A stretch of 64,000 bases of DNA from Gammaproteobacteria bacterium (GTDB lineage: Bacteria > Pseudomonadota > Gammaproteobacteria > Eutrophobiales > Eutrophobiaceae), in NCBI GenBank assembly GCA_965222155.1, contig CBDCTH010000012.1, forward strand, positions 1,856,001 to 1,920,000, written 5' to 3'. A program made the position numbers and the translations under genes. This document shows, one piece after another, positions 4,663-47,723 of this stretch. The first letter of the stretch is position 1. Each line of letters starts with the position of its first letter. The notes beneath the pieces were generated by a model. It did no database searches and had not been told where the DNA came from. It saw nothing but the letters and a program-made list of their open reading frames with translations.

Positions 4663-6009
4663 ATGGCATTTAAAGATATGCGCGACTTCCTCAACCACCT
4701 GGAGGAAAGCGGTAGGCTGGTCCGAATTCAGGATGAGGTAGCGCTCGAATACGAACTGGCGGCTTACCTGCGCAAGGCCTCGGATATGGGTGATGATGGC
4801 CCGGCCCTGCTGTTTGAGAAGGTCAAAGGACATGACTTCCGGGTTGCCGGGGGGCTTTATGCAAACCGGCAACTGATGCTGGAGGCCCTGGAAACCACCG
4901 AGCAGGAAGCCAACGCCAAATATCTCAATGCCATAGACAACCTGAAGGAACATACATTACTCGACCGGGGGCCCTGCAATGAAATGATCCGCCTGGGCGA
5001 CGAGGCAGACCTGACTGCGCTCCCCATTCCAACCTATTGCGAACTGGACGGGGGTCCATTTATCACCCTGGGCATCGCTATCAGCAAGGATCCCGAGGAC
5101 GGCGGCAAGAATGCCTCCATCTATCGCCATCAACTGCTGGGCAAACGCCGCCTGGGAGTGCTGTCACCACCGCCCCATCACCTGGGCGTGCATTACAAAA
5201 AAGCCGAAGCGCTGGGTAAACCGCTGGAGCTTGCGATTGCGCTGGGGGTCGCCCCCAGTACATTAATCGCAACTCAATGGGAAGCGGGCTACGGTGTTGA
5301 TGAACTGACCCTGGCGGGAGCGTTCCTGGAAGAACCCCTGGAGGTCGTCAAATGTCAGACACTGGACCTGGAAGTACCCGCGAGCGCGGAGATTATCATA
5401 GAGGGGAAGATGCTTCCCGGAGTACAAGAGCATGAAGGTCCCTTTGGTGAATACACCGGCTACTATACTCAGGGCTCATCTAAACCCGTGCTGGAAGTCA
5501 GCGCAATAACCCATCGCCACGACCCCATCCTGCTCGCCGGAATGAGTGGTGTGCCGACGACGGACAACCACGTACTGAAAATGATACCCATGGAGGCTTC
5601 CTGCTACGCCATGCTGAAACGCAAGTTTGCCGGCATCAAGCGTGTTCATTTTCACGGCGCCGGAGGTGTGGGACTGATGTGCGTCGTCGCCATGAAGCAA
5701 TATGCCAGGAATGAGGCCAGGCAAGTACTGGCAACCCTGCTGGGTTCCCAGGGCAGCAAACTGGCCGTGGTCGTGGACGAAGACATCGACATCCACGACA
5801 TGGACAAGGTGATGTGGGCGATATGCACCCGGGTACAGGCGCAAAAAGACGTCATGATTCTGCCGCAGATGACCCTCTGGCAGTTGGACCCTTCAGCACC
5901 GGACGACGGCAGCTATTCCGTCATGGGCATTGATGCAACCCGGCCATTCGGTGAAGACTTTGAACAAGTGGCGCTGGTTCCGGACGTAGATAAGGTCCCC
6001 GATTTTTAG
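4663..6009 (+). CDS. UbiD family (de)carboxylase
   Basis: NASIYR, EGPFGEYTGYY, VVVDEDIDI, GIDAT; RBS GAGGAG; 12 nt after tauD-like gene. Confidence 0.92.
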   Translation: MAFKDMRDFLNHLEESGRLVRIQDEVALEYELAAYLRKASDMGDDGPALLFEKVKGHDFRVAGGLYANRQLMLEALETTEQEANAKYLNAIDNLKEHTLLDRGPCNEMIRLGDEADLTALPIPTYCELDGGPFITLGIAISKDPEDGGKNASIYRHQLLGKRRLGVLSPPPHHLGVHYKKAEALGKPLELAIALGVAPSTLIATQWEAGYGVDELTLAGAFLEEPLEVVKCQTLDLEVPASAEIIIEGKMLPGVQEHEGPFGEYTGYYTQGSSKPVLEVSAITHRHDPILLAGMSGVPTTDNHVLKMIPMEASCYAMLKRKFAGIKRVHFHGAGGVGLMCVVAMKQYARNEARQVLATLLGSQGSKLAVVVDEDIDIHDMDKVMWAICTRVQAQKDVMILPQMTLWQLDPSAPDDGSYSVMGIDATRPFGEDFEQVALVPDVDKVPDF

Positions 6010-6073
6010 GCAGTTGTTTCCGCTGACCGGGTTTTGGGGACTGTTTTTCCTTCCTGTGGAGTTAGATCGGCTA

Positions 6074-7672
6074 TTACGTGTACTTTTCGAATACCGATTG
6101 CATTTTTTCCATCATTGCCGGATCCGGAGCCGGTTGAGTATATGATTCGCCGATATCCCGGGTCGCCAATATGCCCAGTTTCGTCACCCGCCAGTGCTGG
6201 TCAATCTCCGGGTCCATCTCCCAGGTCGGCATCTGTGGTGAGACAATGTAATCCTCGGGTCGGCGACCGGCGCGGGTTGCCTTGGCCCACTCTACCTGCT
6301 CACTGTTATGGGGGTCGATGTCATCATCCACGACCGTCACAAACTTGAAATACTGGGTTGCCAGCAGGTACTGGAGCACCTGCCGATCCTCACCTTCATA
6401 GGTCTTCTTCATCGAGACAACCGCGTGAAACCCATGGGAGCCGGCAAAAATACCGATATCCACCACGTGAGGAAACTGTTTTTTAATCTGTTCCAGGCCC
6501 ATTTGCTCATAACCGAAAAAAGCCCAGATACAACCCACCCGATGTTCTTCGGAATTACCTGACATACAGGTATGAAAAATGGGATTTTTCCTGCAGGTAA
6601 TCGCAGTGACTTCCATATAGGGAATTGCCTCAACGACGGTGCCCGAATAATCGGTAAACTCCATCATGGGTCCTTCATCTATCTTGTTATCCGGAGGAGG
6701 AGGCGATAATCCTTCAATCACGATCTCCGTGTTCGCCGGTACTTCGAGGTCGATGGTCTTGCATTTCACCAGTTCCAGAGGCTTGTTTCGGATCACGCCG
6801 GTCATGTCGAACTCACTGTACGGGGGTTCCATCCAATAATGCGGTGATGAGTAGGTCGATAATATCTGCGTAACCGGATCCGGGCCGAGGCATATCGCCA
6901 TGGGACACGGCTCGCCTTTGTCATGATACTTTTGAATGATCTTCCCGCCTGGCGTTTGCGTGCCGATCTGCACGCCTACCTGGTTGGGCGCATAGCGTTC
7001 ATGACTCACCATGTGCCGCCTGACACCGATATTAAGCAAGCCGTTATCCGGATCTTTTTGTACCAGACCTCCCGGGGTAATATATGGACCGGCGTCTTCT
7101 TTCAAGTGCCAGACCACAGGCAACAAGCCCAGGACGTCGATATTCTCTCTGATTACGACTTCCTGGCAAGGCGCGTTATCCACCATAACGTAAGGCTTCT
7201 CCTTGTTATAGGCTCTGCGGTCGGTATCCGTCAGTAACTCCTTGATCAGGATCAGTTCGGCCCGGGAGCGCGGGTCCATGGAAAAACCATTCATCTTGCG
7301 ACCGGACATCCCGGCCAGTGAACCGGGACTGCCGCGAGGATCGTCATAGTATTTTTTTACCTGCTCCTCTGTAGGCACTATACCCAGGGCCATAGCAGTC
7401 CGGTGTATGGTGCCATACAGGTTTGCTACGACCGGCATATCGAAACCCTTGACGTTTTCAAATAATACCGCTTTGTTCGACCCGTTTTCACTATGCTGGA
7501 CAATGGCGGATAGTTCAAAATTCCGTGGGTCGACTTCCTCCTTGACTACGATGATCTCATCGGTTTCCCGCAACCACTCGATGAACTCGCGCATGTCATC
7601 CCGCACTGTTTCAGGATGATGGCTGTTTTCAATTTCCGTGTTGCGCGTTTGATTTTTTTGCTCGTTATTCAT
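6074..7672 (-). CDS. UbiD family (de)carboxylase, divergent
   Basis: DMREFIEWL, EIVIEG, DEGPMMEFTDY, VVDDDIDP; start taken at ATG 7672 after GGGGGAG. Confidence 0.85.
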   Translation of the reverse strand: MNNEQKNQTRNTEIENSHHPETVRDDMREFIEWLRETDEIIVVKEEVDPRNFELSAIVQHSENGSNKAVLFENVKGFDMPVVANLYGTIHRTAMALGIVPTEEQVKKYYDDPRGSPGSLAGMSGRKMNGFSMDPRSRAELILIKELLTDTDRRAYNKEKPYVMVDNAPCQEVVIRENIDVLGLLPVVWHLKEDAGPYITPGGLVQKDPDNGLLNIGVRRHMVSHERYAPNQVGVQIGTQTPGGKIIQKYHDKGEPCPMAICLGPDPVTQILSTYSSPHYWMEPPYSEFDMTGVIRNKPLELVKCKTIDLEVPANTEIVIEGLSPPPPDNKIDEGPMMEFTDYSGTVVEAIPYMEVTAITCRKNPIFHTCMSGNSEEHRVGCIWAFFGYEQMGLEQIKKQFPHVVDIGIFAGSHGFHAVVSMKKTYEGEDRQVLQYLLATQYFKFVTVVDDDIDPHNSEQVEWAKATRAGRRPEDYIVSPQMPTWEMDPEIDQHWRVTKLGILATRDIGESYTQPAPDPAMMEKMQSVFEKYT

Positions 7673-7699
7673 CAATATTCTCCCCCAACCGTTCAATTA

Positions 7700-7940
7700 G
7701 CATGTACCAGCAGACCTTCTTGCCGATGATTTTTACAGTTTAATCATCTATGATTTGATTTACAATTTCAAAAAATACTACATCTACTTGTGTAAAAACA
7801 TAATAATTTTTTTTAAGAAAATATTGTATCAATTTGATATTTATGTCATTTACTAAAAAATACTATAATAGTGATTGAACTTTTATTATTTACAATTTTG
7901 TATATAATCCCTAATTGTATATTCCATTATCGGGGGAAAA
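7700..7940. promoter_or_regulatory. AT-rich divergent promoter region between ubiD-like gene and TonB receptor
   Basis: Very AT-rich spacer with TATAAT hexamers; genes diverge from it. Confidence 0.55.
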
Positions 7941-7942
7941 CC

Positions 7943-10327
7943 ATGCGGAATTTCAGTAAATTTCTAATCTGTGCAGTGATCCCTGTTCTTGCTCCGGCTG
8001 ACGTTTACGCCCAGACAAGCATTGAAGAAATAGTCGTTACCGCAACTAAACGGGGAGAAGTATCCGTACAGGACATAGCAGGTGGAATCACCGCTATCAC
8101 CGGCGATACTATTGATAAATATGACCTGCGTTCCCTGGAAGATTTTTCCCGTCTGGAACCCGGGCTGCAATATGCCACCCAGGGTGTCGGTGATACCCAG
8201 TTGATCATCCGCGGTATTTCATCTCCAGGCGACAGCACCGTAGGCGTCTATTTTGATGAGTCCCCGATCACCGGCGGCAATTTTCAGGACGGCGGCGGCC
8301 GCACCCCTGATATCGGCGCCTATGACATTGCCCGCATCGAGGTGCTGAAAGGCCCGCAGGGTACATTATTCGGCGCCAGTTCCATGAGTGGCGCGGTAAG
8401 AATTATCACAAACAAGCCGGATGCCTCCGGTTTCAATATGAATATTTCCACGGGGTTTGAGTCGGTCGAGCATGGTGATGAGGGTTACTCGATCAACGCC
8501 GCGGTCAACGTTCCGCTGGTCGCGGACACCCTGGCCCTGCGCCTGGTGGGCTGGCAAAAGGAACGGGGTGGGTATATCGACCAGTCCGCCGGACTGAACG
8601 GCGTCACTGAACTGGACGACGTGAATGATTCGGAAATCACCGGCGGCCGCATTATGGGGCGCTGGACGCCGAATGAGAACCTGACCGTTGATGCATTTTA
8701 CCAATTGCAGGAAACCGAGGTAGATGGCGCCCAGCACTATGCGCCCGTTGCCAGTGGCCTGCTCACGCCGACCCAGGTGATCGTTGTGCCGTTCCCGCAT
8801 TTTATCCCGGCGTTTGAGGGTTCTTTCGGTGATCTGAAGACTTCAACCGCCCACCAGGAACCCTATGGTGACGACATCGATATGTACGGTTTTACTATAG
8901 ATTATGACCTGGGGTTCGGTTCGATTCTCGGTACCATTTCGAAATTCGAGCGTGACATTGAATTCCTGGAAGACACCTCGGCTACCGCCATGTCATTCGG
9001 CTTCCCACCGGCTTTCGGCCCTCCACTCGGTTCCTACGGTATTCACCAGTTTCAGGACCGCGACGTATTCAATGCCGAAATCCGTTTCAGCTCGGACCTG
9101 GACGGGCCCATCAACTTTGTCGGCGGTTTCTTCTATGAAGACGATGAGACGTATTCCGAACTGGATATCCTGGCCGGGGATATCGTGACCGGCATTCCCG
9201 TATGCAATAGCAGGGACGAATGCATTACCGACCCGGCGCTGGCAGCGGCTTCCCTGGCATTCGCCCGCAGCCAGGATATCAATTTTGAATTCTTTGCGGT
9301 ATTCGGCCACGTCGATTACGAAATAACTGAGCAAATCACCCTGGGCGGCGGGGTCCGGTATTTCGATTCGGAACAGGAAAACCTGGAACAGACCCTGCAG
9401 GCCTTTCAGGGCAGTATCGCTTTCACCATCCCGCCATTATTCGGTGGGCCGATCCAGACCACACCGTTCGTCACCGTCGATAGTACAGCAAAGGAAGATG
9501 AGGTTACCTGGGATGCGAGCCTGTCCTACTCGCCGACTGACAACCAGATGTACTATGTCCGCGCAGCAACCGGATTCAGGCAAGGCGGGATCAACGACGC
9601 CTCGACAGCCTCTGTTTTCGGCATCAGCATCCCTGCTTCGTTCATTTCAGACCAAGTCCTCAGTATTGAAGTTGGCGCCAAGACCGCCTGGTCCGATGAT
9701 CGGGTAACCCTCAATGCGACTTATTTCAAGATGTTCTGGGACGATATGCAGGTGCCGGGCGTTGAACCTACCGGCGCCGTTGAATTCATTTCTAATGCAG
9801 CAAAAGCGGAAGTGGACGGGGTTGAGATTGAACTGGCGGCACGACCGACGGATCAATTTTTGCTGCACCTGGGCGCCACCTGGATTAATGCGGAACTGAC
9901 GGAAGACCAAATCATAGATCCGGGCCTGGCCGCGCCGGGGTTTACCCCACCCCTGGGTGTGGATGGCGACAACATACCCAAAGTACCCGACTGGGCTTTC
10001 TCCGGGACTATGGAATATTCGTTTCCGCTGACCATGCTGGGTAACGTCGAAGGGTCGTTGCGCGGTAATTTTTCCTACACGGGGGAATCGGATACCTTCT
10101 TCAATGACAACTTCCCCGGCTTTGTTGAGATCGGTGATTATTTCCTGTTGAACCTCAGCGCAAATTTCCAGCATAACAACTGGGGGCTGCGCTTCTTCGT
10201 GGATAACCTGACCGACGAACGGGCAAAAGTTGATATAGACGGCTCCTGGGGACCGGATACGTACAGGCTCTTCACCGTGAGGCCGCGCACTTTCGGCGCA
10301 CAGGTAAGCTGGGCTTACGGACAATAG
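7943..10327 (+). CDS. TonB-dependent receptor
   Basis: Signal peptide, TonB box EEIVVTATKR, plug RIEVLKGPQGTLFG, C-terminal PRTFGAQVSW. Confidence 0.95.
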   Translation: MRNFSKFLICAVIPVLAPADVYAQTSIEEIVVTATKRGEVSVQDIAGGITAITGDTIDKYDLRSLEDFSRLEPGLQYATQGVGDTQLIIRGISSPGDSTVGVYFDESPITGGNFQDGGGRTPDIGAYDIARIEVLKGPQGTLFGASSMSGAVRIITNKPDASGFNMNISTGFESVEHGDEGYSINAAVNVPLVADTLALRLVGWQKERGGYIDQSAGLNGVTELDDVNDSEITGGRIMGRWTPNENLTVDAFYQLQETEVDGAQHYAPVASGLLTPTQVIVVPFPHFIPAFEGSFGDLKTSTAHQEPYGDDIDMYGFTIDYDLGFGSILGTISKFERDIEFLEDTSATAMSFGFPPAFGPPLGSYGIHQFQDRDVFNAEIRFSSDLDGPINFVGGFFYEDDETYSELDILAGDIVTGIPVCNSRDECITDPALAAASLAFARSQDINFEFFAVFGHVDYEITEQITLGGGVRYFDSEQENLEQTLQAFQGSIAFTIPPLFGGPIQTTPFVTVDSTAKEDEVTWDASLSYSPTDNQMYYVRAATGFRQGGINDASTASVFGISIPASFISDQVLSIEVGAKTAWSDDRVTLNATYFKMFWDDMQVPGVEPTGAVEFISNAAKAEVDGVEIELAARPTDQFLLHLGATWINAELTEDQIIDPGLAAPGFTPPLGVDGDNIPKVPDWAFSGTMEYSFPLTMLGNVEGSLRGNFSYTGESDTFFNDNFPGFVEIGDYFLLNLSANFQHNNWGLRFFVDNLTDERAKVDIDGSWGPDTYRLFTVRPRTFGAQVSWAYGQ

Positions 10328-10378
10328 TTCTGCCGTATTTATTGATGCCAATCGTATATTCCGGCAAAATTCCTGACC

Positions 10379-11587
10379 GTGAGTGAGATAAGCTACAGCA
10401 ATGCACCCTGGCCGGTGCGCGAGAATTTTGCCGCAGGTCATAATCGCTACTGGCAACGTCTGGCCGCGCCGGGAAACTGGTTGACGAGCACTGAACGGGT
10501 CAATGTAGCCAGGGAAATCCGCCAGGCGCGACAATGCAGCCTGTGCCGCCGACGTAAAGAGGCGTTGTCACCTTACCAGGTTGACGGGACTCATGACGTT
10601 GTAACCGATCTGCCCGAGGTCATGGTCGAAGTCATCCACCGCGTGGTCACCGACTCGGCTCGTCTCACCAAAAACTGGTTTGACGGGATCATGCAGCAGG
10701 GGCTCAGTGAGGAACAATATGTTGAGATCATCGGCACCCTGGTTTCGGTGTTCATGATCGATGAATTCTGCCGTGGTATTGGCCTGCCCCTGAACGAACT
10801 ACCGGAACCACAACCCGGCAATCCAAGTCGTTACCGCCCTGCCAATGCTTCCCATGACGGCACCTGGGTACCACTGCTCCCGGCGAGAGTCGATAGCGGA
10901 CCTGATGCCGATTTGTGGGAGGGACGCGTCGGCGGCTATGTCATCCGGGCCCTCAGCCTTGTCCCTGATGAAGTGCGTACCCTGATGGATACCTTGAAAG
11001 CGCATTATCTCAACAGCGCAGAAATCTGGAACGTCACAAAGTCCCCTCAAGGAACGCTGACCCGCATTCAGACAGAGGTGGTAGCCGCGCGAGTATCCGC
11101 ACTCAACGGCTGTTTCTACTGAACCGCCTCACATGTGGTGATGCTCCGTGAGAGCGTCGAGCTGACAGGCGGGTCCATCGACTTCGACGGTCTCACTGAT
11201 CCCTCCTGTACAGAGATCAGGGGCGTACCGAATTCCCGTGAATTGCTGCAGCTCGCCAATGCCTGTATGGGTGACGACAGTGCCGCCCTGGCCACTGCGC
11301 GCCAGGCCCTGGTAGATACAATGGGTTCTGCGGCGATGATCGATACGGTCGGGGTCATATCGAATTTTCAGCGCATGGTGCGGATTGCCGATGCGACAGG
11401 CATCCCCTCCGACGACTCAATGCAGGTGATGTCCGAGGACCTGCGGGAGCAACTGGGAATTAACCGGTATGTCTCCGCTGCCAACTCCGAGCGACCATCC
11501 TTTTTTCAAAGGCTACTGCTCAAATTCGTAGGTATCCGCCAGTTCCGCAAGATGGTTCGGGAAGCAAGCCAGAATCCAGTGAAATAG
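10379..11587 (+). CDS. AhpD/carboxymuconolactone-decarboxylase-like selenoprotein, 402 aa, Sec at codon 248 (TGA 11120-11122)
   Basis: ORFs 10379..11122 and 11135..11587 share a frame; read-through gives VAARVSALNGCFY-U-TASH, matching AhpD VSxxNxCxxCxxxH; hairpin follows TGA; selA adjacent. Confidence 0.88.
11123..11174 (+). promoter_or_regulatory. Candidate bacterial SECIS element
   Basis: Upper stem GATGCTC (11140-46)/GAGCGTC (11152-58), loop CGTGA 24 nt after TGA with G at loop position 2; lower stem CCGCCT/AGGCGG. Confidence 0.7.
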
Positions 11588-11612
11588 ACAATTCTTTATA
11601 AGGAAGGTTCGT

Positions 11613-13034
11613 TTACTGGATACCGGCATTCGCCGATATGACGGGATACTGATCTAGCTGGGCTATAAATTCACCTTCCCGGTCCAGACAACGCAGGTCC
11701 AGGAAATACGCGCCGTTATTGATCCGGCCGATAACCGGGACAGGCAACCGGCGCAGTGATGCAGCCAGTTCCCGGATAGCCTGGTCTGAATCATCTGCCG
11801 CGTTGATCCTGACGCCGACACTGGGCAACGTTTCAACCGGCAAGGCGCCACTGCCGACCTGGCTGTGACATTCTGTTATCGCCACTTCATAACGCGGCGC
11901 CAATACTTCCGCAATCCGTGGCGCAACCCGCTCAGCCTGGGAGCGTATCTCGGCAATCGGCCGGGTTAAGGCTGCAAGAGTCGGCAGTTTTTTCGCCAGT
12001 TGTGAAGGATTTTGATAGAGTTTCAGCACCTCAGCCAGGGCTGCCAGGGTCATCTTGTCGACGCGCAGGGCGCGTTTCAGCGGATTATTCTTCATCCTGG
12101 TTATCAAATCCCGTTTGCCGGCGATAATACCGCACTGGGGGCCGCCCAACAGCTTGTCTCCACTGAAAGTGACAATATCCGCGCCTCTCTTCACCGTCTG
12201 CGCAACGGTGGGTTCATCGGGCAGGTTGAAAGCGGAAAAGTCGATCAGGTTACCGCTGCCCAAATCGATCACAAAAGCTAAACCGTTCTCATGGGCCAAT
12301 TCCGCCAGGTCCGTTTCGGCAACGCTATGGGTAAACCCCCAGATTTGATAATTACTCGCATGTACCTTCAGCAATAACGCAGTATTGGTGTTTATAGCGT
12401 TTTTGTAGTCTTTCAGGTGGGTGCGATTGGTTGTTCCGACCTCGACCAGGGCGCACCCTGAACTCCGCATGATTTCGGGGATGCGAAAGGATCCGCCAAT
12501 TTCGACCAACTCGCCCCGGGATACGGGTACTTCGGCATGATTCGCCAGCGTGTTCAACACCAGTAATACCGCCGCGGCATTGTTGTTTACCACTGTCGCC
12601 GCCTCTACCCCGCCAAGCTCACAGATCAGGCGCTCCGCGTGAACGTCACGATCACCGCGTTTACCGGTTGGTAAATCGTATTCCAGGTTAGCCGGTGTTT
12701 GTGCTATGGCCAGCACCGCATCCAGTGCTTCACGGGGGAGCGATGCGCGGCCCAGGTTTGTATGTAAAACAGTACCCGTGAGATTGAATACACTGATTAA
12801 ACTGCTATTAGCGGTATTTTCCAATTCAGTTTCAACGGAACAGACGACATGGCTTAAAAATGAAGTCTTATCAACAGGAGTAAACGTTTCCATGTTATTG
12901 CGAATGCGATCAAGCTCATTGCGGATTGCAGTCGTCACACGCTCATGTCCCCAACGTTCAGTAAGATGAGGAGCCTCTCGCAGTACACGATCTACTGACG
13001 GCAAGTCCCTCAGACGCTGCTTGTCACTGCTCAT
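11613..13034 (-). CDS. selA: L-seryl-tRNA(Sec) selenium transferase
   Basis: NLTGTVLHTNLGRA, SRGELVEIGGSFRIP, EVGTTNRT, FSGDKLLGGPQ (PLP Lys). Confidence 0.98.
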   Translation of the reverse strand: MSSDKQRLRDLPSVDRVLREAPHLTERWGHERVTTAIRNELDRIRNNMETFTPVDKTSFLSHVVCSVETELENTANSSLISVFNLTGTVLHTNLGRASLPREALDAVLAIAQTPANLEYDLPTGKRGDRDVHAERLICELGGVEAATVVNNNAAAVLLVLNTLANHAEVPVSRGELVEIGGSFRIPEIMRSSGCALVEVGTTNRTHLKDYKNAINTNTALLLKVHASNYQIWGFTHSVAETDLAELAHENGLAFVIDLGSGNLIDFSAFNLPDEPTVAQTVKRGADIVTFSGDKLLGGPQCGIIAGKRDLITRMKNNPLKRALRVDKMTLAALAEVLKLYQNPSQLAKKLPTLAALTRPIAEIRSQAERVAPRIAEVLAPRYEVAITECHSQVGSGALPVETLPSVGVRINAADDSDQAIRELAASLRRLPVPVIGRINNGAYFLDLRCLDREGEFIAQLDQYPVISANAGIQ

Positions 13035-13072
13035 TTCTGAATTAATTCGCTAATGCGACTAATATCTAAAAC

Positions 13073-13147
13073 CAAAGGGGTCAGACTCGATTGATATTAT
13101 AACAATGCAAAGGTGTCTGGAAAATCAATCGAGTCTGACCTCTTTGA
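13073..13147. repeat. REP-like inverted repeat pair
   Basis: CAAAGGGGTCAGACTCGATTGAT ... ATCAATCGAGTCTGACCTCTTTG, 23-bp arms with 1 mismatch. Confidence 0.75.
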
Positions 13148-13263
13148 TTACGGTAATGCGAAGATCGTTGAAGCTCTGAGCGCTGAAAAGTAGCTTTGAA
13201 ACAGTTTCGGTCTATATCCAATTGTTTTCACTTACTGCCTTGCCTGATAAATGCCGACTTGAC

Positions 13264-13319
13264 GCCTAATACTAAATTCAGCGGTGGCGTTAGCCGTCCG
13301 CTGAAGTGTCTTGTTGTGC
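13264..13319 (-). repeat. attC site (core GTT changed to ATT)
   Basis: Minus strand GCACAAC-AAGACACTTCAGCGGACGGCTAACGCCACCGCTGAATTTAGT-ATTAGGC. Confidence 0.75.
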
Positions 13320-13550
13320 GATGCGGCACTTTTCGTAAACAAACTCAGGATCAAGATCAGCGCCGGATTCCCATGCAATTGCGTCAAAAGAGACATGAAC
13401 AGTTTTGAAGACACTTGGATCTTGTATTTTATTAAAAACCCCAAAATTTAAGTACGGTTTCATATCCAGTAATCCATTCTCTCCATTATCAAAAACTACT
13501 GACAGGATATAATCATCTTCACACTCAACAGATATTACAGCAGGGTGCAT
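13290..13550 (-). CDS. DUF2442 family protein (TA-type partner of DUF4160)
   Basis: DDYILSVVFDNGE...AIAWESGADLDPEFVY; RBS GAGGA; stop lies inside attC. Confidence 0.85.
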   Translation of the reverse strand: MHPAVISVECEDDYILSVVFDNGENGLLDMKPYLNFGVFNKIQDPSVFKTVHVSFDAIAWESGADLDPEFVYEKCRIAQQDTSADG

Positions 13551-13560
13551 CAAATTGTCC

Positions 13561-13827
13561 TCATTGTAGTGGTTGAATCTTAAACGGTTCTTCACCATTC
13601 ATGACAAGTTCCCAATCTGCCATGAGATCTTCCTGGTGGAGCTCTGCCCACGCCAAAACTAACTTGGTTTGCTTTTTTGGCAACTTGCCGTCAATAATCT
13701 CACAAGTGCGAATATCAACCCTTGCCTTATGTTCAGCGTAATAAACATGAAAGTGAGGCAGAGGGTGCTCGCGAGGGGCAAAATACATTCTAATGATGAT
13801 GCCATAAAACATCGATATAGTTGGCAC
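13561..13827 (-). CDS. DUF4160 family protein
   Basis: MPTISMFYGIIIRMY...HPLPHFHVYY...WAELHQEDLMADW. Confidence 0.9.
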   Translation of the reverse strand: MPTISMFYGIIIRMYFAPREHPLPHFHVYYAEHKARVDIRTCEIIDGKLPKKQTKLVLAWAELHQEDLMADWELVMNGEEPFKIQPLQ

Positions 13828-13862
13828 TCCGAAATTCCTCGTTTAGTCAATCAGTTTTTTCC

Positions 13863-13919
13863 GCACAACGATTTAACCAGACGCCGCGTTAGCGGGTCGG
13901 CTGAATTTGATTGTTAGCT
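13863..13919 (-). repeat. attC site
   Basis: Minus strand AGCTAAC-AATCAAATTCAGCCGACCCGCTAACGCGGCGTCTGGTTAAATC-GTTGTGC, starting 5 nt after the upstream ORF stop. Confidence 0.8.
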
Positions 13920-13924
13920 TTCTA

Positions 13925-14260
13925 TCACCTATCCGCCTTCTTGAAATCTTCTGTTTTGGGAGGATCAAGCGCAAACCAATCATAATTGAAAACTTGCTCT
14001 CTATCGGAATTTACTTCGTTTAATGTACATAGTCCTTCACCTGGCAATCCAGTTTCTTGTTTAACAACCAGAACTGTAAGAGGAGGAAGACCGTTATCTT
14101 TGCAGTACCACATAATCGGCCCAGGAAACTGTGCCATTACACCCGCGCCTCCCATCCCAAGTATCTCTGCGATTTCGCCATAAGTGTATGACTTGCGCTC
14201 TCTTGCTGCACATACAAGCAACGTCCAGATTTGCAATGATCTTTGATATCTATTCACCAC
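13925..14260 (-). CDS. Hypothetical cassette protein (possible winged-helix, YTYGEIA...LPPLTVLVVKQETGLPGEG)
   Basis: 111-aa ORF with RBS AAGGAG fills the cassette between two attC sites. Confidence 0.75.
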   Translation of the reverse strand: MVNRYQRSLQIWTLLVCAARERKSYTYGEIAEILGMGGAGVMAQFPGPIMWYCKDNGLPPLTVLVVKQETGLPGEGLCTLNEVNSDREQVFNYDWFALDPPKTEDFKKADR

Positions 14261-14278
14261 GGTCTCCTTTGTTTGTGT

Positions 14279-14350
14279 AGCTAACGTTGGAATTGAGCTT
14301 GCCTTGGAGCACAGTGGAAGGGTAAGCGGTCAACTCGAATGATATCATAT
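14279..14350 (-). repeat. attC site, 5' box (R'') degenerate or deleted
   Basis: Minus strand ...ATTCGAGTTGACCGCTTACC...GGCAAGCTCAATTCCAAC-GTTAGCT. Confidence 0.65.
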
Positions 14351-14483
14351 GGCCTGATCGAGAATCCACAAGACCACGCTCGACCATACGTACGAACGTA
14401 AGTTCGTGCAGGGTTTCCTTATATGTCGCATCTTCCGGCTGCGACTCGATTACTTCCTTCATTTTCTCTTTCGCTATTGCCAC
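14345..14483 (-). pseudogene. Truncated type II antitoxin-like gene running into attC
   Basis: AKEKMKEVIESQPEDATY...VERGLVDSRSGHMIS resembles small RelE/ParE-associated antitoxins; frame continues into the attC palindrome, no toxin follows. Confidence 0.6.
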
Positions 14484-14504
14484 CGAATCTCTCCTCTACT
14501 TAAG

Positions 14505-14575
14505 GCATAACGCCGCACTTGAGCGATCGAGCTGGAGCGAGGTCCGAGCGCCGAAGGAGCGATCTCAAAGTGGGT
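14505..14575 (-). repeat. attC site, 5' box replaced by repeat array
   Basis: Minus strand CACTTTGAGATCG...CGATCGCTCAAGTG-CGGC-GTTATGC. Confidence 0.6.
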
Positions 14576-14578
14576 AAC

Positions 14579-14768
14579 AAATTGAGGACATCCATAAATT
14601 GGGGACAAATTCGGGACATCCATAAATTCGAGCGAGCAAATTTGGGACATCCATAAATTAGAGGAAGCAAATTTGGCAAATTCGGGACATCCATAAATTA
14701 GAGGAAGCAAATTTGGGACATCCAAGAGGAGGACAAATTCAGGGAGACAAATTCAGGACATCCATAAG
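14579..14768 (+). repeat. Irregular array of ~6 AAATT(C/T)GGGACATCCATAAATT units (REP-like)
   Basis: Directly visible; short, mutually similar linkers; solo copy near 15018. Confidence 0.85.
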
Positions 14769-15114
14769 TAACCGATTTATCACATTATGACGATGGGTTC
14801 GTGAGTTCGTTGGGGGCGGCATCAAAGAGGAGACCGTTGTGCGGTTGGTCCGCCGCAACGATACAGACTCCGATGTTTTTTACACCAAAACAAGTAATTC
14901 ATTAACGAACTGCTCTGGTGCGGACGTCAGGTGACACCTCATCGGGCAGGAGGAAGGCGGCTACGTATCCCAGCATTTTAATCTTGTATATAATGTCATG
15001 TACTTTCAACATGAATCAGGACATCCAAATTCTCACCCCTCGCTGACTACCTGGAACAAATTAGAGAGTAAACCCTGCCACCCCACCCTTTATTATTTTT
15101 TGACATCTGCCTCA

Positions 15115-19488: not shown

Positions 19489-20801
19489 TTAAAGCGCGCA
19501 GGTCCTGAAACCCGCCATCACATCGCGCCGGTCCGGAGGGAAAAAATTACGGTACCGGCCTGTTACCATACGGCTTCGAGTTGCCCAGGCCCCGCCTTTT
19601 AATACCTTGGTGTCATAAAACAGCGGCTCTGAATATTCCTTGTAGGCATCCGCTGAAAATCCGGGAAACGGGGCAAACGTATCCGCTGTCCATTCCCATA
19701 CGTTGCCAAGCATCTGCCGGCAGGCAAACGCGCTGTCTCCCGCAGGCAACGCGGCCACATCAACACACCCCAGTGCGCGGCCATCAAGATTCGCCTGCCG
19801 TATCTCCGGCGCTTGTTCCCCCCAGGGGTAGGTGCGTTTTATCAGGGCAAGCACACTGTTGTCTTTTCAGGTTCACCCAATGCGGCGGCTTCCCACTCCA
19901 CTTCCGTCGGCAAGCGCCTGCCTGCCCAACGGCAATAAGCATTGGCTTCATACCAGTTCACATGAATGACAGGTTGATGCAGCGGCATAGCCTCGATCTC
20001 ATTAAAACGCCTCAGCCGCCATTCCCCCCGGTCACCGGTGAGCCAATATACAGGATGTCCGGCATGGGTTTGCTCCCGCCAGGACCAGCCTTCATCACTC
20101 CAGAACTCCCGGTGCCGATACCCCCCCGCATTGACGAAATCCATGAACTCGGCATTGGTGACCGGCGCTTTTGCCATGTGAAAGGGTTCAACAATTACTT
20201 TGTGCGCCCATTTTTCATTATCGAAGACAAACGGCGTTTCTTCAGTGGACCCTGGAAAAAACACCCCTCCCGGAATGGCTGCATCCCCCGGCCAGGCCCC
20301 GGCATCTGCATCTTCCGGGCTGAGAGCATTACCGAATGAGGGCTTTGGATAAGCCAATGTCTGACGCGACCAGGAATAAGCCTCGGTGTGCATGTCTTCA
20401 TGAAAGGTGGAAAACTGGTACAGGTAGCTTTGCGCCGGATCGGCCGTTCCGTCAGGTAACAGTGACAGGCAGTCGTGCAGGACATTCTCCGTATAATCCA
20501 GCGTCTCCTGCAAACTCAACAGTGGCAGGTCCCAACGCTGTTCGTGATGGATGGCGATGGAATCATAGATAGCGTCACCGTTTGCCAGTAGCGGGGGCCG
20601 ACCATACAGGTCGCGCAGGATGAACTTTTCATGAAACCAGGCCACGTGCCCGATTTCCCAGCGTAACGGATTGACGATGGGCAACTTCGGCCCTATCAGT
20701 TGCTCCTCATCCAGACCGGTGACCAGTTCCAGAGTCCTGTTATGGGCATCCGTCATGATTTCCTTCAAATAATTACTGCTTACCGGTTGCATCGTGACCA
20801 T
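19489..20801 (-). pseudogene. senA: Selenoneine synthase SenA (EgtB-like DinB + FGE-sulfatase domains), one frameshift near 19864-19867
   Basis: NPLRWEIGHVAWF, HEDMHTE, RLPTEVEWE in 19842..20801; YPWG, GNVWEW, GFRT in 19489..19854; one extra A in the A4 run joins them; next to senB and selD. Confidence 0.85.
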
Positions 20802-20820
20802 AGTTACTTAAAGTATAAGT

Positions 20821-21771
20821 ATGAAGATTATCCTAATTACCCCCGGAAAAAAACAATCGAAAACGGGAAATCGTACTACGGCGGTACGCTGGGCGCGATT
20901 GTTACGGGATATCGGCCACAGGGTAATAGTTCAGACCGACTGGGACGGGACGCCGGCCGATATGATGGTGGCGTTACATGCGTGGCGCAGCGCGTCATCG
21001 ATAGAGAGATTTTTCCAGCGCTTCCCCGGCCGCCCCCTGGTGGTTGCCTTGACCGGCACGGACATCTACCACTTCCAGCACAGCCATCCTGAGGAAACCC
21101 TGCGCTCCATGGAAATGGCCGACGCCCTGGTATGTCTGCATGACCTGGTATACCGGGCGATCCCGGAAACATACCGTGAGAAACTGCGTGTAATCCATCA
21201 ATCGGCAGTACCGCTGAAACGCGAACGCAGGCCGTCAGTGCGCACATTCGATGCCTGTGTAATAGGTCATTTACGCGAGGAGAAAGACCCGTTCAGAGCC
21301 GCCTGCGCTGCCCGAATCCTGCAGGAAGAGTCCAATCTCCGTGTGATCCATCTCGGCAAGGCACATGATAGTGAATGGGCCGAACAGGCGCGCACCGAGA
21401 TGGAGATAAATCCCCGTTATCACTGGCTTGGCGAGGTTGGCGCGTGGCGGGTACGACGGGAATTTGTAAAGACACATGTGCTGGTGCATAGCTCGATCAT
21501 GGAAGGCGGCGCTAACGTCATTTCAGAAGCCGTGATCGCGGGTGTTCCTGTCATTGCCTCTGATATCGATGGTAATGTCGGTCTGCTCGGCGAGGATTAT
21601 CCCGGTTATTATCCCGTAAAAGACACCAGAGCGCTTTGCGCATTGTTACAGCGAGCGGAAACAGAGCAAAGCTTCCTGCGACGTTTGCACGAGCATGGAA
21701 ATGAACGCAAACAATTGTTTACCCCGGAACGGGAGATCGAGCTCTGGAAAATGTTGTTGGATAGCCTGTGA
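20821..21771 (+). CDS. senB: Selenosugar synthase SenB (GT-B glycosyltransferase)
   Basis: ITP...GNRTTAVRW, ALHA, LTGTD, GHLREEKDP, SIMEGGANVISEA; between senA and selD. Confidence 0.9.
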   Translation: MKIILITPGKKQSKTGNRTTAVRWARLLRDIGHRVIVQTDWDGTPADMMVALHAWRSASSIERFFQRFPGRPLVVALTGTDIYHFQHSHPEETLRSMEMADALVCLHDLVYRAIPETYREKLRVIHQSAVPLKRERRPSVRTFDACVIGHLREEKDPFRAACAARILQEESNLRVIHLGKAHDSEWAEQARTEMEINPRYHWLGEVGAWRVRREFVKTHVLVHSSIMEGGANVISEAVIAGVPVIASDIDGNVGLLGEDYPGYYPVKDTRALCALLQRAETEQSFLRRLHEHGNERKQLFTPEREIELWKMLLDSL

Positions 21772-21783
21772 TAATGACGATGA

Positions 21784-22191
21784 CTACCCTGTTTCGAATG
21801 GATTCAAGAATTCCACACCAAGTATGTCAAAATCACGCCCGTTTCTGGTGACGACCGTCAACCTGTGAACGATGGCCGTTGCAGCAATCATCGCATCCTC
21901 AGTTATGGTGTCTGACTTTCTGTGCATGAGACGCGCCCATTCTCGGAAAGCTGGCGCATTCATCGGTAGTACACTGTAGGAAGCGAGAACTTTGTTGAGC
22001 CAGTCTTCCAACTCCTCTGCCTTTACCACATCCTGCTCCCGGGTAATTTCGATGCCCGCCTGTATCTCCCCGACCGTAACTACAGATACAAAGAGTTGAT
22101 CCGAAGGTATGTTCGTAATCCAATCCAGAACCGCCCGGTGTGGCTGTCGACGTCGCAATTCTGAAACCACCTTGGTATCAAGTAAGTACAC
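21784..22191 (-). CDS. vapC: VapC/PIN-domain toxin
   Basis: YLLDT(K)VVSE, TVGEI, DAMIAATA, VVTRNGRDF. Confidence 0.9.
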   Translation of the reverse strand: MYLLDTKVVSELRRRQPHRAVLDWITNIPSDQLFVSVVTVGEIQAGIEITREQDVVKAEELEDWLNKVLASYSVLPMNAPAFREWARLMHRKSDTITEDAMIAATAIVHRLTVVTRNGRDFDILGVEFLNPFETG

Positions 22192-22195
22192 CTGT

Positions 22196-22456
22196 TTACT
22201 CGACGACCGTTGGCGTCCGTCGGCGGTATTTCAGACGCGGTGGAGTAAGCGTGTCAGCCCGCGCTTCCGGTGTAAGAAGCAATTCCTTCAAGTCAGGTTT
22301 CGCCATCTCCTCTAATCTCCGCCACTGCCCAATAGGGACGAGCACTGCCGTTTCTACGCCACGCTTGGTCACGATCTGCGGTCCATCGGACAGACTAGCT
22401 TTAAGTAATTCGCTGAATCTCGCCTTCGCATCCTGAACCTGCCATATCTTGCTCAT
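22196..22456 (-). CDS. Phd/YefM family antitoxin
   Basis: WQVQDAKARFSELL...GPQIVTKRG; directly upstream of vapC. Confidence 0.9.
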   Translation of the reverse strand: MSKIWQVQDAKARFSELLKASLSDGPQIVTKRGVETAVLVPIGQWRRLEEMAKPDLKELLLTPEARADTLTPPRLKYRRRTPTVVE

Positions 22457-22479
22457 ACCGCCCCCAATTATTTGTAAAC

Positions 22480-22500
22480 TGACTAGGCATAAGACTAGTC
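22480..22500. promoter_or_regulatory. Possible TA autoregulatory operator
   Basis: GACTAG twice, second within palindrome GACTAGTC, just upstream of the antitoxin start. Confidence 0.4.
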
Positions 22501-22569
22501 TATAACACATGGAAGGTCAAGATGAAGAAGTGCAGTGTGAAAACAGGGCCGAATGGTCATCTTGAAACG

Positions 22570-24840
22570 TCATGACAGCAATCTTACCGGCTCCAACCGA
22601 TCACCCTCAGGCAACACCCTGCCGATAATTGCCGTTCGGGTATAGCCCAGATTACGCAGCTCGCTGAGACACGCTTGTGCCCGCTCTTCCGGGACACCGG
22701 CAAGTAATCCACCGGAGGTCTGCGGATCGAATATCAATGGGTAGCGCAGATATTTTGACGCGCTTTCAACATCACGTATGGCTCGGCGCAAACGCAGGTT
22801 CTCTGGTTGTAATGAGCTGAATATGCCGGCTGCAACCGTCTCCTCGGCACCGGCCAGAAACGGGATGGCGCCCAGGTCGAGCTCAACATCAACGTGAGAA
22901 GGCTTTATCATTTCCACCAGGTGTCCCAGCAGGCCAAAGCCGGTTACATCCGTGCATGCGGTTGCCCCGTGTGCGAACAAACACCCGGCGGCTTCATGGT
23001 TTGATTGCAACATGCTTGCCAGTGCGGCAGCGATCCAGGGCCCTTTTGCCTTGTATCGCATATCGGCCGCAAACAGGGTCCCGGTCCCGATGGCCTTGGT
23101 CAACAGGATTCGATTACCTGCATCCAGGCCGCTTTTATGCAGGATATTCTCCCGGTCAATCAGGCCGTTCACGGAAAAACCCAAAGACAACTCCTCGCCT
23201 TCGCTCGTATGTCCGCCGACCAGTGCCGTACCTGTCTCGTTCAATACCTTGAGGGCGCCTCGCAACATTTGCGAAAGCAATTCTTCAACCTTCTTTTCAT
23301 TAGCGTAGGGGACGGTCACGATAGCCAATGCCGTTTGCGGCTGCGCGCCCATCGCGTATAAGTCACTCAGGGCATGATTTGCGGCCACCTGTCCGAAAAT
23401 ATAGGGATCATCGATAAACGATCGGAATGAATCGACCGTGTGCACCATCACTTTACCGGCAGGAACACTCGCTACGGCAGCATCATCAGGTTCGTGTAAC
23501 CCGATAAGCACATCATCCCGGGAAACCGGTTCAAGTCCTGCCAGTGCGTTTTCAAGCACCGTAGCGCCCACCTTGGAACCGCAACCGCCACAGCGCATGG
23601 CAATGGCGGATATCTCCTTGATCGCGTCCTTATCGACTAACCCGCGGGGAATATCCTGCCGCACCTCCCCCTCCATATCGGGAAGCCGGTTGAACTTGCG
23701 CATGAAGCGGCGATCAATCCAGTCTTTCCAGTTCCACACCCAGCGTCCTTCCAGCGCCCACCAGGAGCGTGAGGCGATGGCATATTTATCTCCCGTGGAA
23801 ATCAGGCTGAGGAATTCTCTTTGCGGGAAAAAGGGTTTAAGGGGACGGTCCAGCAACTTGCGCCGGACATTCGATGACAGAGGCGGTCCCTGACGCACGG
23901 CGAACACACCGGATTTGGGCCGGGGATGGTTAACCACGTGGGCGCTATCACCGGCCGCGAAGATGTCCGCATGTGACACGGACTCAAGTGTATTGTTGAC
24001 TTTGATAAATCCCTGTTCATCAACGTCAAGCCCGGCCTTTGCCAACCACGTCTGGGCGCGGGCCATGGTCACCCATAGTATCTCATCCAGATCAAAGGTT
24101 GCGCCGTTGGCGCATTGCAAACCGCCGGGCCGGACTTCGACCACCTTGTGTCGCGTATGGACGTTGATCTCCCGCTCTGTAAGCACGCGCCGGAACTTGG
24201 CGCGTACAAATCGGTTGTGGGTGGTCAGGACGGCATCAGCATCGGTAAACAAGTGAAATTCAGGAGCTACATTATCCGGCCATTTTCCGGCCAGTAACTC
24301 TTTCAGTCGATATTGAACCGCAAGCGTCAGTTCAACGCCGCCTGCCCCCGCGCCGACGATGCCGATCCGCAAGCCACCCCGGCGCCGTAATACCCGCTCA
24401 CACAGGCTTTGCCAGTTGTCAACAAAACCATCGATGGGTTTGACCGGCGTTACATTGGCGGCAGCGCCGGGGACAGCAGAGATATCAGGCGCGGAGCCAA
24501 CGTTAATTGACAGCACGTCGTAACTCACGTCAGGCCGGTCGCGGCAGATCAGTCTTTTATTGTCCGTATCCAGACCGACCACCTCATCATGGAAAAACCG
24601 GGCGCCGGCAAATCGGGATAAGGGAACCAGGTCGATATGAGCCTCGTCGAAACTATAGTGTCCGGCTATAAATCCTGGCAACATACCGGAATAAGGCGCC
24701 TGCAAATCCCGGCATATCAAGGTCACGCGTACGCCCGGCATGGGCTTCATACCAAGCTTTTTCAACACGGTGACGTGGGCGTGCCCACCACCTACCAGCA
24801 CCAGGTCCTTCAAAACCGGGATATGATTGCTATTCATCAC
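22570..24840 (-). CDS. selD: Selenide, water dikinase fused to N-terminal FAD/NAD(P) oxidoreductase (SelD, SenC role)
   Basis: N-terminal GGGHAH, YSGMLPG, GAGAGG; C-terminal RCGGCGSK, DDAA, ALSDLYAMG, GGHTSEG, TDVTGFGLLGH, DPQTSGGLL. Confidence 0.95.
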   Translation of the reverse strand: MMNSNHIPVLKDLVLVGGGHAHVTVLKKLGMKPMPGVRVTLICRDLQAPYSGMLPGFIAGHYSFDEAHIDLVPLSRFAGARFFHDEVVGLDTDNKRLICRDRPDVSYDVLSINVGSAPDISAVPGAAANVTPVKPIDGFVDNWQSLCERVLRRRGGLRIGIVGAGAGGVELTLAVQYRLKELLAGKWPDNVAPEFHLFTDADAVLTTHNRFVRAKFRRVLTEREINVHTRHKVVEVRPGGLQCANGATFDLDEILWVTMARAQTWLAKAGLDVDEQGFIKVNNTLESVSHADIFAAGDSAHVVNHPRPKSGVFAVRQGPPLSSNVRRKLLDRPLKPFFPQREFLSLISTGDKYAIASRSWWALEGRWVWNWKDWIDRRFMRKFNRLPDMEGEVRQDIPRGLVDKDAIKEISAIAMRCGGCGSKVGATVLENALAGLEPVSRDDVLIGLHEPDDAAVASVPAGKVMVHTVDSFRSFIDDPYIFGQVAANHALSDLYAMGAQPQTALAIVTVPYANEKKVEELLSQMLRGALKVLNETGTALVGGHTSEGEELSLGFSVNGLIDRENILHKSGLDAGNRILLTKAIGTGTLFAADMRYKAKGPWIAAALASMLQSNHEAAGCLFAHGATACTDVTGFGLLGHLVEMIKPSHVDVELDLGAIPFLAGAEETVAAGIFSSLQPENLRLRRAIRDVESASKYLRYPLIFDPQTSGGLLAGVPEERAQACLSELRNLGYTRTAIIGRVLPEGDRLEPVRLLS

Positions 24841-42063: not shown

Positions 42064-42633
42064 ATGAAACGAATTATTATCGGTATGTCCGGGGCCAGCG
42101 GCCTGCCTTACGGTATCCGGCTGGTAGAAGTGCTGGCTGATTTGCCGGATATCGAAACCCACCTGATCATGACCAATGCGGCCAAGCTTAATATCGGTAT
42201 TGAAACGGAACACAGCGTCACCGACATAGAGGCGTTGGCGGACGTGGTCCATAGCGTAAAAGACGTTGCCGCCACCATCTCCAGCGGTTCTTTCAGGACC
42301 GACGGCATGATCGTCGCTCCCTGTTCCATGCGGACACTGTCAGCGATTGCCCACTCCTACGCCGACAACCTGCTGGTGCGAGCTGCCGACGTAGTCCTCA
42401 AGGAACGCCGGCGCCTGGTAATCATGCCCCGTGAAACGCCGTTGCATACGGGACACTGTAAATTATTCTACGATGCATCAGTCCTGGGAGCAATCATCGC
42501 CCCGCCCATCCCGGCGTTTTATAATCGACCCCAAACCATCGATGATATTGTCAACGCCAGTATAGGACGGGTGCTGGACTTGTTTGATATCGAACCCGGC
42601 ATCGTAAAACGCTGGGCGGGCGTGAAAAACTGA
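42064..42633 (+). CDS. ubiX: Flavin prenyltransferase
   Basis: GMSGASG, ISSGS, APCSM, RAADVVLKERR, RETP, PAFY. Confidence 0.96.
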   Translation: MKRIIIGMSGASGLPYGIRLVEVLADLPDIETHLIMTNAAKLNIGIETEHSVTDIEALADVVHSVKDVAATISSGSFRTDGMIVAPCSMRTLSAIAHSYADNLLVRAADVVLKERRRLVIMPRETPLHTGHCKLFYDASVLGAIIAPPIPAFYNRPQTIDDIVNASIGRVLDLFDIEPGIVKRWAGVKN

Positions 42634-47474: not shown

Positions 47475-47723
47475 TTATAATTCTGATGTTTCATCCACTT
47501 GCGCCGGCGGGATATTGTGTTTGTATTTTTCAGGGTGATCCGGGTCTGCTCGAAACCAGGCTTCCCGCTGCGTATAGTCTATGGATTCATCCGGTTCGCT
47601 ATCGCGCCAGGTGAACGAACAGCGCCGGCAGTGCAAAACGGCCCATACGATTTCATCCCCTTCCCTGCCCTGGTATTCGGTGCGCAGGTGTTCTTCGGCT
47701 GATCGGCAACGGGGGCAGTTCAT
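47475..47723 (-). CDS. Non-oxidative hydroxyarylic acid decarboxylase subunit D (VdcD/BsdD-like)
   Basis: CPRC...W..LHCRRCSFTWR..E...IPP; ATGA overlap with subunit C. Confidence 0.88.
   Translation of the reverse strand: MNCPRCRSAEEHLRTEYQGREGDEIVWAVLHCRRCSFTWRDSEPDESIDYTQREAWFRADPDHPEKYKHNIPPAQVDETSEL

Follow-up and report, generated by a model that had tools for sequence, protein, structure and literature searches.

AhpD of Mycobacterium tuberculosis and PA0269 of Pseudomonas aeruginosa share the helical CMD/AhpD fold and a proton relay that the active-site passages of one report assign to Glu118, Cys130, His132, Cys133, and His137 in the former and to Glu36, Cys48, Tyr50, Cys51, and His55 in the latter (PMC3141380). 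In short selenoproteins of the same superfamily, termed 'AhpD-like 1/2' and 'CMD domain' in the relevant sections of two surveys, selenocysteine (Sec, U) is likewise placed in a CxxU motif (PMC2398784, PMC1088965), and these proteins are abundant in marine bacteria, with 299 and 70 sequences in Global Ocean Sampling (GOS) samples (PMC2398784). A further family, NCBIfam NF041238 (AhpD_rel_CFYUT, 'alkylhydroperoxidase-related (seleno)protein', an equivalog model), is equated in the table of a 2026 review with 'hypothetical protein 1' of the 2005 Sargasso Sea selenoproteome (PMC13188914), a group of four sequences for which the section devoted to it gives a conserved CXXU motif, a predicted selenocysteine insertion sequence (SECIS), and 'no functional evidence' (Zhang, Fomenko, Gladyshev 2005; PMC1088965). 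Here we describe a gene of this family at positions 10379..11587 of the plus strand of a 64-kb stretch of DNA (the window; positions 1,856,001 to 1,920,000 of contig CBDCTH010000012.1, Gammaproteobacteria bacterium), which plain open reading frame (ORF) calling splits at an in-frame UGA.

The best explanation overall, to which we give a probability of roughly 0.8, is that the gene encodes an NF041238 selenoprotein with two AhpD-like domains, in which a hairpin would direct the decoding of UGA as Sec and the product would perform selenol/thiol redox chemistry. The gene is a member of a curated selenoprotein family that has been on record since 2005, which makes the finding correct without being novel, and a specialist would not be surprised by the results; an earlier note on this DNA, made from the sequence alone, had pointed to a CFYUT-type family with no established function, and NF041238 is that family, although the string 'CFYUT' itself was not found in the literature searched. 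The gene shares with NF041238 and the Sargasso Sea 'hypothetical protein 1' a full-length match, the CFYUT motif, the alternation of Sec and Cys, and a SECIS hairpin past the UGA, with no difference of substance. What is added to the family here is a two-domain AhpD-like model, an invariant N-terminal CxxC, evidence for the SECIS at the level of codons, and, for one group of Gammaproteobacteria, an association with sel and sen genes.

One Gene Across an In-Frame UGA

Plain ORF calling places two ORFs in the same frame of the plus strand, 10379..11122 (247 aa, GTG start) and 11135..11587 (150 aa). Translated with TGA as U, positions 10379-11587 form 402 codons from the GTG start to a TAG stop (11585-11587), the sole non-standard codon being U248 (11120..11122), and the codons around it, tgt ttc tac tga acc gcc tca cat, spell C-F-Y-U-T-A-S-H. 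The full-length product matches NF041238 with 476.6 bits against a cutoff of 175, and the match, of residues 13-365 on profile positions 1-356 of 357, runs across the TGA; the downstream half does not constitute an independent gene family. The CFYUT motif occupies residues 245-249; C245, Y247, U248, and T249 are invariant in an alignment of 48 sequences, in which position 246 is F, Y, or V. Pfam matches only a short CMD stretch (PF02627, residues 220-258), and TIGR01926 scores 36.1 bits, under its cutoff of 81.8. On these and the comparative data that follow, the two ORF calls are very probably one selenoprotein gene whose UGA is decoded as Sec, and they should be merged in annotation.

A scan of species-representative genomes with the Sec-form query returned 162 relatives, of which the best 80 were kept, representing 79 loci (designated by L numbers). 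The site is present in 78 of these loci, L029 ending before it, and as L011 holds two tandem gene copies there are 79 sites to compare. The aligned codon is TGA at 77 sites and a Cys codon at the other two (TGC in L024, from Henriciella, and TGT in L033, from Pseudomaricurvus alkylphenolicus), a ratio in which Sec is overstated, since the search started from a Sec form and retained only the best-scoring half of the relatives; no sequence ends at this site with TAA or TAG, and conservation continues beyond it. The TGA forms span Gamma- and Alphaproteobacteria, Binatia, Thermoanaerobaculia, Myxococcota, Entotheonella, and metagenome-assembled genomes of Spirochaetales. Among database proteins, 116 of the best 120 of 1347 matches are fragments of 226-291 aa that cover 56-61% of the query, and the five fragments that were aligned all end at C-F-Y; public protein sets thus hold many shortened family members of about 247 aa. 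The other four of the best 120 (P0014, P0018, P0020, and P0027) are full-length proteins of 376-382 aa with C-Y-Y-C-T-S-G-H in this place, and they conserve the downstream motifs GLTDPxC, NFQRMxRIAD, and LGINxY.

The half that follows the UGA also carries the marks of coding constraint. The protein aligns end to end with 47 homologues, and D322, A337, D338, and G341, all past the UGA, are invariant in the resulting alignment. Comparison with 14 relatives shows a post-UGA half whose nucleotide differences concentrate on the third position of the codon (relative to L004, for instance, 14, 14, and 54 over the three positions) and whose amino-acid identity is comparable to that of the first half. 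The seventh codon after the TGA is ATG at only 32 of the 77 sites, being CTG at 26 and TTG at 14, and there is therefore no conserved restart of translation. The description in the earlier note of one frame interrupted by a single TGA, located at the second Cys of an AhpD CxxCxxxH site, is borne out by the 402-residue translation and by the spacing of the relay, and its proposed comparison of homologues for Cys or TGA at residue 248 came out in favor of a selenoprotein.

A SECIS Hairpin Recognized by Comparison

In bacteria, a selenoprotein gene is expected to carry a SECIS soon after the UGA with a G in its apical loop, as embodied in bSECISearch. Such a hairpin is found at 11139..11159 of the plus strand, where an 8-bp stem (11139-11146 with 11152-11159) closes the apical loop CGUGA (11147-11151). 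The stem begins 16 nt past the UGA and the loop 24 nt past it; the stem-loop with an apical G that had been noticed earlier is therefore present, with the distance of 24 nt belonging to the loop and not to the stem. Folded alone (25 nt), the hairpin has a stability of -10.1 kcal/mol (z = -2.44), equalled by 4 of 200 shuffled sequences.

Several observations count against a SECIS at this position. A wider stretch of 111 nt is of ordinary stability (z = -0.45, with 60 of 200 shuffles as stable), and the window alone would therefore not prove the element. Rfam yields no match at gathering score over the whole window, nor any at E up to 10 on 11050-11250. The two outer pairs of the stem stay open in 31 and 23 of the 69 distinct sequences, and the conserved element is therefore a 6-bp stem with a 5-nt loop, corresponding to 11141-11146 with 11152-11157 in the window. 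The putative SECIS is convincing solely through comparison with its relatives.

For this comparison, 70 sequences (69 distinct) were aligned without gaps from the TGA, placing the helix in columns 20-27 with 33-40. The core GCUC-CGUGN-GAGC is invariant across the alignment. Pairing within the helix is kept in 88.4% of 552 cells and falls to 28-54% when the 3' partner is slid by 1-3 columns, and covariation reaches 0.263 compared with 0.179 ± 0.012 in shuffled alignments, none of 500 attaining the observed value. Exchanges are seen most clearly at pair 22-38 (CG in 24 sequences, AU in 21, UG in 12) and at pair 23-37 (UG in 34, UA in 33).

The choice of codons within the element supports a SECIS independently of these pair statistics. 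The Leu codon of the stem is CTC at all 77 TGA sites, compared with 28% of the 2010 Leu codons found elsewhere in 67 of the same genes; the Arg codon of the loop is CGT at 69 sites, CGG at 7, and replaced by AGT (Ser) at 1, compared with CGT for 13% of Arg codons elsewhere; and the closing Ser/Gly codon is AGC at 67, AGT at 5, GGC at 3, and GGT at 2, never TCN, compared with AGC for 26% of Ser codons elsewhere. The two Cys-form loci have no hairpin, their corresponding segments folding at -3.7 and -3.0 kcal/mol with z about 0, no better than shuffled sequences, and they encode MLSVS and MLQTS where the Sec forms encode (M/L)LR(E/A/V/G)S. The Arg residue therefore appears to be imposed by the RNA and not by the protein. 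By the standard mechanism of bacterial SECIS elements, the hairpin with its CGUGA loop would recruit SelB carrying Sec-tRNA to the UGA at 11120-11122, and Sec would be inserted as residue 248.

Two Predicted AhpD-Like Domains and a Relay With Probable Sec

AlphaFold2, run on the 48-sequence alignment, returns an all-helical model of high confidence (predicted local distance difference test, pLDDT, 94.9; predicted template modelling score, pTM, 0.94), in which we read the protein as a tandem duplication of an AhpD-like domain, with two predicted domains of the AhpD/CMD fold. As judged from the alignment, the C-terminal domain holds the full AhpD relay (11075..11134, plus strand), consisting of E233 (11075-11077), C245 (11111-11113), Y247, U248, and H252 (11132-11134), and the spacing Glu-x11-Cys-x-(His/Tyr)-Cys-x3-His of M. 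tuberculosis AhpD and PA0269, as given in the active-site passages for those proteins, is reproduced exactly. These five residues are invariant in the 48 sequences, as are T249 and, in the N-terminal domain, C53, C56, H72, and H87. The N-terminal C53-x-x-C56 (10535..10546, plus strand) is a possible second site of redox chemistry or metal binding. Relative to AhpD and PA0269, which are 177 and 145 aa in length, the CFYUT protein is distinguished by its 402 residues in two tandem domains, where an AhpD would be a single domain of about 145-190 aa, by Sec in place of the second Cys, and by the lack of an ahpC neighbor. It is similarly set apart from the short 'AhpD-like 1/2' and 'CMD domain' selenoproteins, which have one domain instead of two and which reviews treat as families (COG2128/TIGR01926, PF02627) separate from NF041238.

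A profile search of PDB sequences matches the C-terminal half only, the best match being Deinococcus radiodurans AhpD (6k40) with an E of 2.2e-14 over profile positions 179-342; next come the AhpD-core proteins described as 'peroxidase-related', namely 2oyo, 3c1l, 2pfx, and 2prr. These five TIGR01926 structures are single domains of about 190 aa with a CxxC, most of them themselves without an assigned function; they are the best matches to the C-terminal half in both sequence and fold, and the best matches in fold to the N-terminal half. With the whole model as query, Foldseek aligns AhpD-core proteins over half of the model with a probability of 1.00 and a target-normalised template modelling (TM) score of up to 0.67. 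The N-terminal half modelled alone (pLDDT 91.9) matches 2prr, 6k40, and 3c1l (E about 0.01, TM 0.47); for both halves these three structures are matched with a probability of 1.00, at E-values of only about 0.01-0.07. A comparison of the two halves by hhalign places C53xxC56 exactly onto C245xxU248 and is suggestive of an internal duplication. A duplicated AhpD-like domain is less well served by the Foldseek E-values, the best of which, 0.021 with the whole model and 0.0087 with the N-domain, stay above 0.001, and by the statistics of the hhalign match, which combine an E of 0.0015 with a probability of only 17%.

The sole full-length structural match is to human Sestrin2 (5dj4, 5t0n), over 392 aligned columns with a query-normalised TM of 0.43, a root-mean-square deviation of 12.8 Å, 12% identity, and an E of 0.035. 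Sestrins consist of two AhpD-like lobes, and the likeness of the model to Sestrin2 is one of architecture only, without evidence of common descent or function. The protein also has a C-terminal amphipathic helix (H375-398, PSFFQRLLLKFVGIRQFRKMVREAS; window positions 11501-11584, residues 375-402), which is present in the gammaproteobacterial relatives of the window and absent from the four aligned Cys-form database proteins, and which may serve as an element of membrane association or oligomerisation.

In M. tuberculosis AhpD, the nucleophilic attack is made by the second Cys of the motif, and it is this position that Sec occupies in the CFYUT protein. Given the full relay together with Sec at the second-Cys position, the most likely chemistry is a cycle in which C245 and U248 would alternate between a selenol/thiol and a selenenylsulfide state, reducing an oxidised substrate such as a hydroperoxide, a sulfenate, or a disulfide, possibly with a relay through C53/C56; we consider the chances of peroxide or disulfide reduction to be about even. 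Counting for this chemistry is one locus, L071, where thiol-redox genes flank the selenoprotein gene; counting against it, no AhpC or other peroxiredoxin partner was found among the window ORFs scanned. When two neighbors on each side were collected in 68 loci, giving 253 ORFs in 184 clusters, with one member of each cluster labelled by a Pfam/NCBIfam scan, an AhpC-TSA/Redoxin fold appeared in only 1 of the 184 (in L071), so that in the gene neighborhood, which is where it was sought, the pairing of AhpD with AhpC is missing. The handles available for experiment are the two-domain model, the full relay with Sec, the second invariant CxxC, the recurrent sel/sen linkage in one marine gammaproteobacterial group, and a cultured carrier of the Cys form, P. 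alkylphenolicus KCTC 32386 (L033).

Selenium Genes Around the Locus

The gene lies tail-to-tail with selA (11613..13034, minus strand), the stop codon of which is 25 nt past the TAG of the selenoprotein gene, as had been noted earlier and as the coordinates bear out. This selA is an intact gene that scores 587.8 bits with TIGR00474, whose cutoff is 267.9, and covers profile positions 1-450 of 455. A second component of the Sec pathway is encoded at 22570-24840 (minus strand) as a fusion of SelD (294.4 bits) to an N-terminal pyridine-nucleotide-disulfide oxidoreductase (TIGR03169, 'Nterm_to_SelD', 498.6 bits), an arrangement that the GOS selenoproteome paper calls the 'Ndh-SelD fusion' (PMC2398784). 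Both selA and selD, which together are a mark of bacterial selenoprotein synthesis, are thereby found within the window. Weighing against Sec decoding are the absence of any tRNA gene, and so of selC, in the 64-kb window and the absence of the SelB family among the 39 window ORFs scanned. An ORF-poor gap of about 2 kb upstream of selA (13035-14997) was considered as a decayed selB and rejected, as it belongs to a low-GC insert with DUF2442, DUF4160, and repeats.

The missing components do occur beside the orthologous gene in two relatives, L011 and L012, in which it is followed on the opposite strand by a full Sec cluster of tRNA-Sec, selB (392.5 and 401.3 bits), selA, and the fused SelD (L011 9987-15858, L012 12016-17705). 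Comparison with the window indicates that this full cluster is partly dispersed in the clade to which the window belongs. In L011, the selenoprotein gene itself is present as two tandem copies (6931-9486), both with the TGA and the hairpin.

The remainder of the ancestral selenium cluster in the window extends over 19489..24840 and comprises, besides the SelD fusion, a frameshifted senA (19489-20801, minus strand; SenA 359.5 bits, under the cutoff of 420), senB (20821-21771, plus strand; SenB 427.3 bits), and a PIN/VapC-like gene (21784-22191) between senB and the SelD fusion. No other SelD is encoded in the window, where the fusion would need to supply SelA as well as SenB. In seven relatives (L001, L002, L005, L006, L008, L009, and L010), CFYUT (+), selA (-), senA (-), and senB (+) adjoin one another in that order, with the SelD fusion (-) coming next in five of these (L001, L002, L005, L008, and L010); the window keeps the order of CFYUT, selA, senA, and senB, broken between selA and senA by the segment 13035-19488.

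This linkage raises the possibility that the CFYUT protein has a role in handling selenium and not in general redox defence, reductively releasing or carrying it (from selenite adducts, a selenosugar, or oxidised selenoneine) for the adjacent SelD fusion that feeds both SelA and the SenA/SenB pathway. The protein might, in its most specific form, be a dedicated redox enzyme of a 'selenium island' of selC, selB, selA, senA, senB, and the oxidoreductase-SelD fusion, an idea we regard as speculative, and its CxxU, relayed through the N-terminal CxxC, might reduce or mobilise a selenium compound for SelD or recycle oxidised selenoneine, which is equally tentative; if true, such a role would explain why the protein has been retained as a selenoprotein beside the genes for Sec and selenoneine. 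In addition to the conserved arrangements in L011 and L012 and in the seven contiguous loci, the gene abuts selA in 11 of the 79 loci, representing about 4 of 32 clades defined at 70% identity, and in L029 the gene immediately before it, in the same orientation, is a plain selD. In 68 of the 79 loci, however, there is no sel gene in the flanks examined, and none is found there in the alphaproteobacterial and other clades. Selenoprotein genes, moreover, often adjoin sel genes without working in selenium supply. The preprint on the discovery of selenoneine lists selD-overlapping genes, and its main text contains no occurrence of 'AhpD'. We consider a selenium-handling function unlikely compared with a general selenol/thiol redox activity.

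The segment that separates selA from senA in the window is an insertion with a low-GC stretch (41-47%), small genes of the DUF2442 and DUF4160 families, a tandem-repeat array (14578-14767; periods 31, 40, and 71), and a 1429-aa Snf2-family helicase. The best NCBIfam match of the helicase is of the SCO1167/SCO6262 type, with ZorD- and DrmD-like matches as well, all under cutoff, and neither the helicase nor the low-GC stretch has a counterpart in any of the 79 loci. In senA, the gene for selenoneine synthase, the frame shifts at an A-run around 19850-19866: one frame matches residues 1-320 of the L001 orthologue and another matches residues 315-439, and the window ORF is 319 aa long compared with 434-446 aa in seven relatives. 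This senA is either a pseudogene or the product of an assembly error.

The Upstream Receptor and Other Neighbors

Upstream of the selenoprotein gene is a TonB-dependent receptor with Plug and β-barrel domains (7871..10327, plus strand), separated from it by 51 nt. Receptor orthologues are 793-794 aa long and match from residue 16-27 onward, and translation probably begins some 20-27 codons past the GTG at 7871. The only nearby promoter-like site on the plus strand (7834-7861) ends 10 nt before this GTG, and the 51-nt gap contains no promoter-like or terminator-like site, which makes co-transcription of the two genes plausible in the window. The receptor reaches the cutoff of no specific NCBIfam family, and its substrate can therefore not be assigned.

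The earlier note had gone on to propose that the two genes are probably co-transcribed and that the enzyme acts on a substrate imported by the receptor. The spacing holds and local co-transcription is plausible, and an orthologous receptor (82-91% identity) lies directly upstream on the same strand in five relatives (L002, L003, L008, L017, and L019). These, however, are only 5 of the 79 loci and all belong to the clade of the window itself (at least 70% identity), in which other members have different genes upstream, namely a POT transporter on the opposite strand (L001, L005, L006, and L007), a UbiD enzyme (L004), or unrelated genes; a TonB receptor of any kind occurs within 10 kb in 16 of the 79 loci. 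The receptor-enzyme pair is accordingly not conserved across the family, and the link is local to one clade. TonB-dependent receptors are numerous in marine Gammaproteobacteria of this kind, and, with a receptor that scores under every specific cutoff, the notion of an imported substrate is weak; we consider it improbable, to about the same degree as a role in selenium handling.

The neighbors taken together are a mixture of catabolic and transport genes, most of them of a catabolic or xenobiotic type, including UbiD decarboxylases, amidases, acyl-CoA ligases, dehydrogenases, P450 enzymes, 2-oxoglutarate (2OG) oxygenases, ring-hydroxylating oxygenases, α/β hydrolases, TetR regulators, and MFS transporters. 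They would suit a catabolic redox enzyme residing in variable catabolic islands, a Sec-dependent reductase of a small organic substrate. Bmp8, a debrominase of the AhpD fold that carries out reductive dehalogenation, offers a possible precedent, and the N-domain model also matches its structure (6ohj; E 0.32, probability 0.85). UbiD homologues, in particular, are found near the selenoprotein gene in 10 of the 79 loci, from 5 clades. The match to Bmp8 is nevertheless weaker than those to AhpD-like proteins, and no single catabolic partner is conserved, so that a catabolic function of this kind seems somewhat more doubtful still than import through the receptor. More generally, no family is shared by more than about 6 of the 32 clades; there is no conserved partner gene, and the context therefore does not fix a substrate, which is a weakness also of the preferred reading as a selenol/thiol redox enzyme.

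Least credible is that the TGA is a real stop, between two separate genes or in a gene inactivated by nonsense mutation: the two ORFs of plain calling, the fragments of about 247 aa that make up 116 of the best 120 database matches, and the lack of selB and selC in the window would fit it, but it would cut the CxxU-xxx-H site in two and is already contradicted by comparative data, namely the same TGA over several phyla with Cys as the only substitute, a downstream half under coding constraint with no conserved restart, and a hairpin kept only where the TGA is present.

Two minor observations concern these neighbors. L071 is the only locus in which thiol-redox genes flank the selenoprotein gene (9136-11741), with a DsbD/CcdA-type transmembrane protein encoded upstream and the AhpC-TSA/Redoxin-fold protein overlapping the 3' end of the gene. 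The window itself is unusually rich in UbiD/UbiX-type (de)carboxylases (4663-7696, 42064-42633, and 47720-49198), with two genes of the UbiD type next to the receptor as well as a UbiX and a VdcC that scores 658 bits, just over its cutoff of 650.

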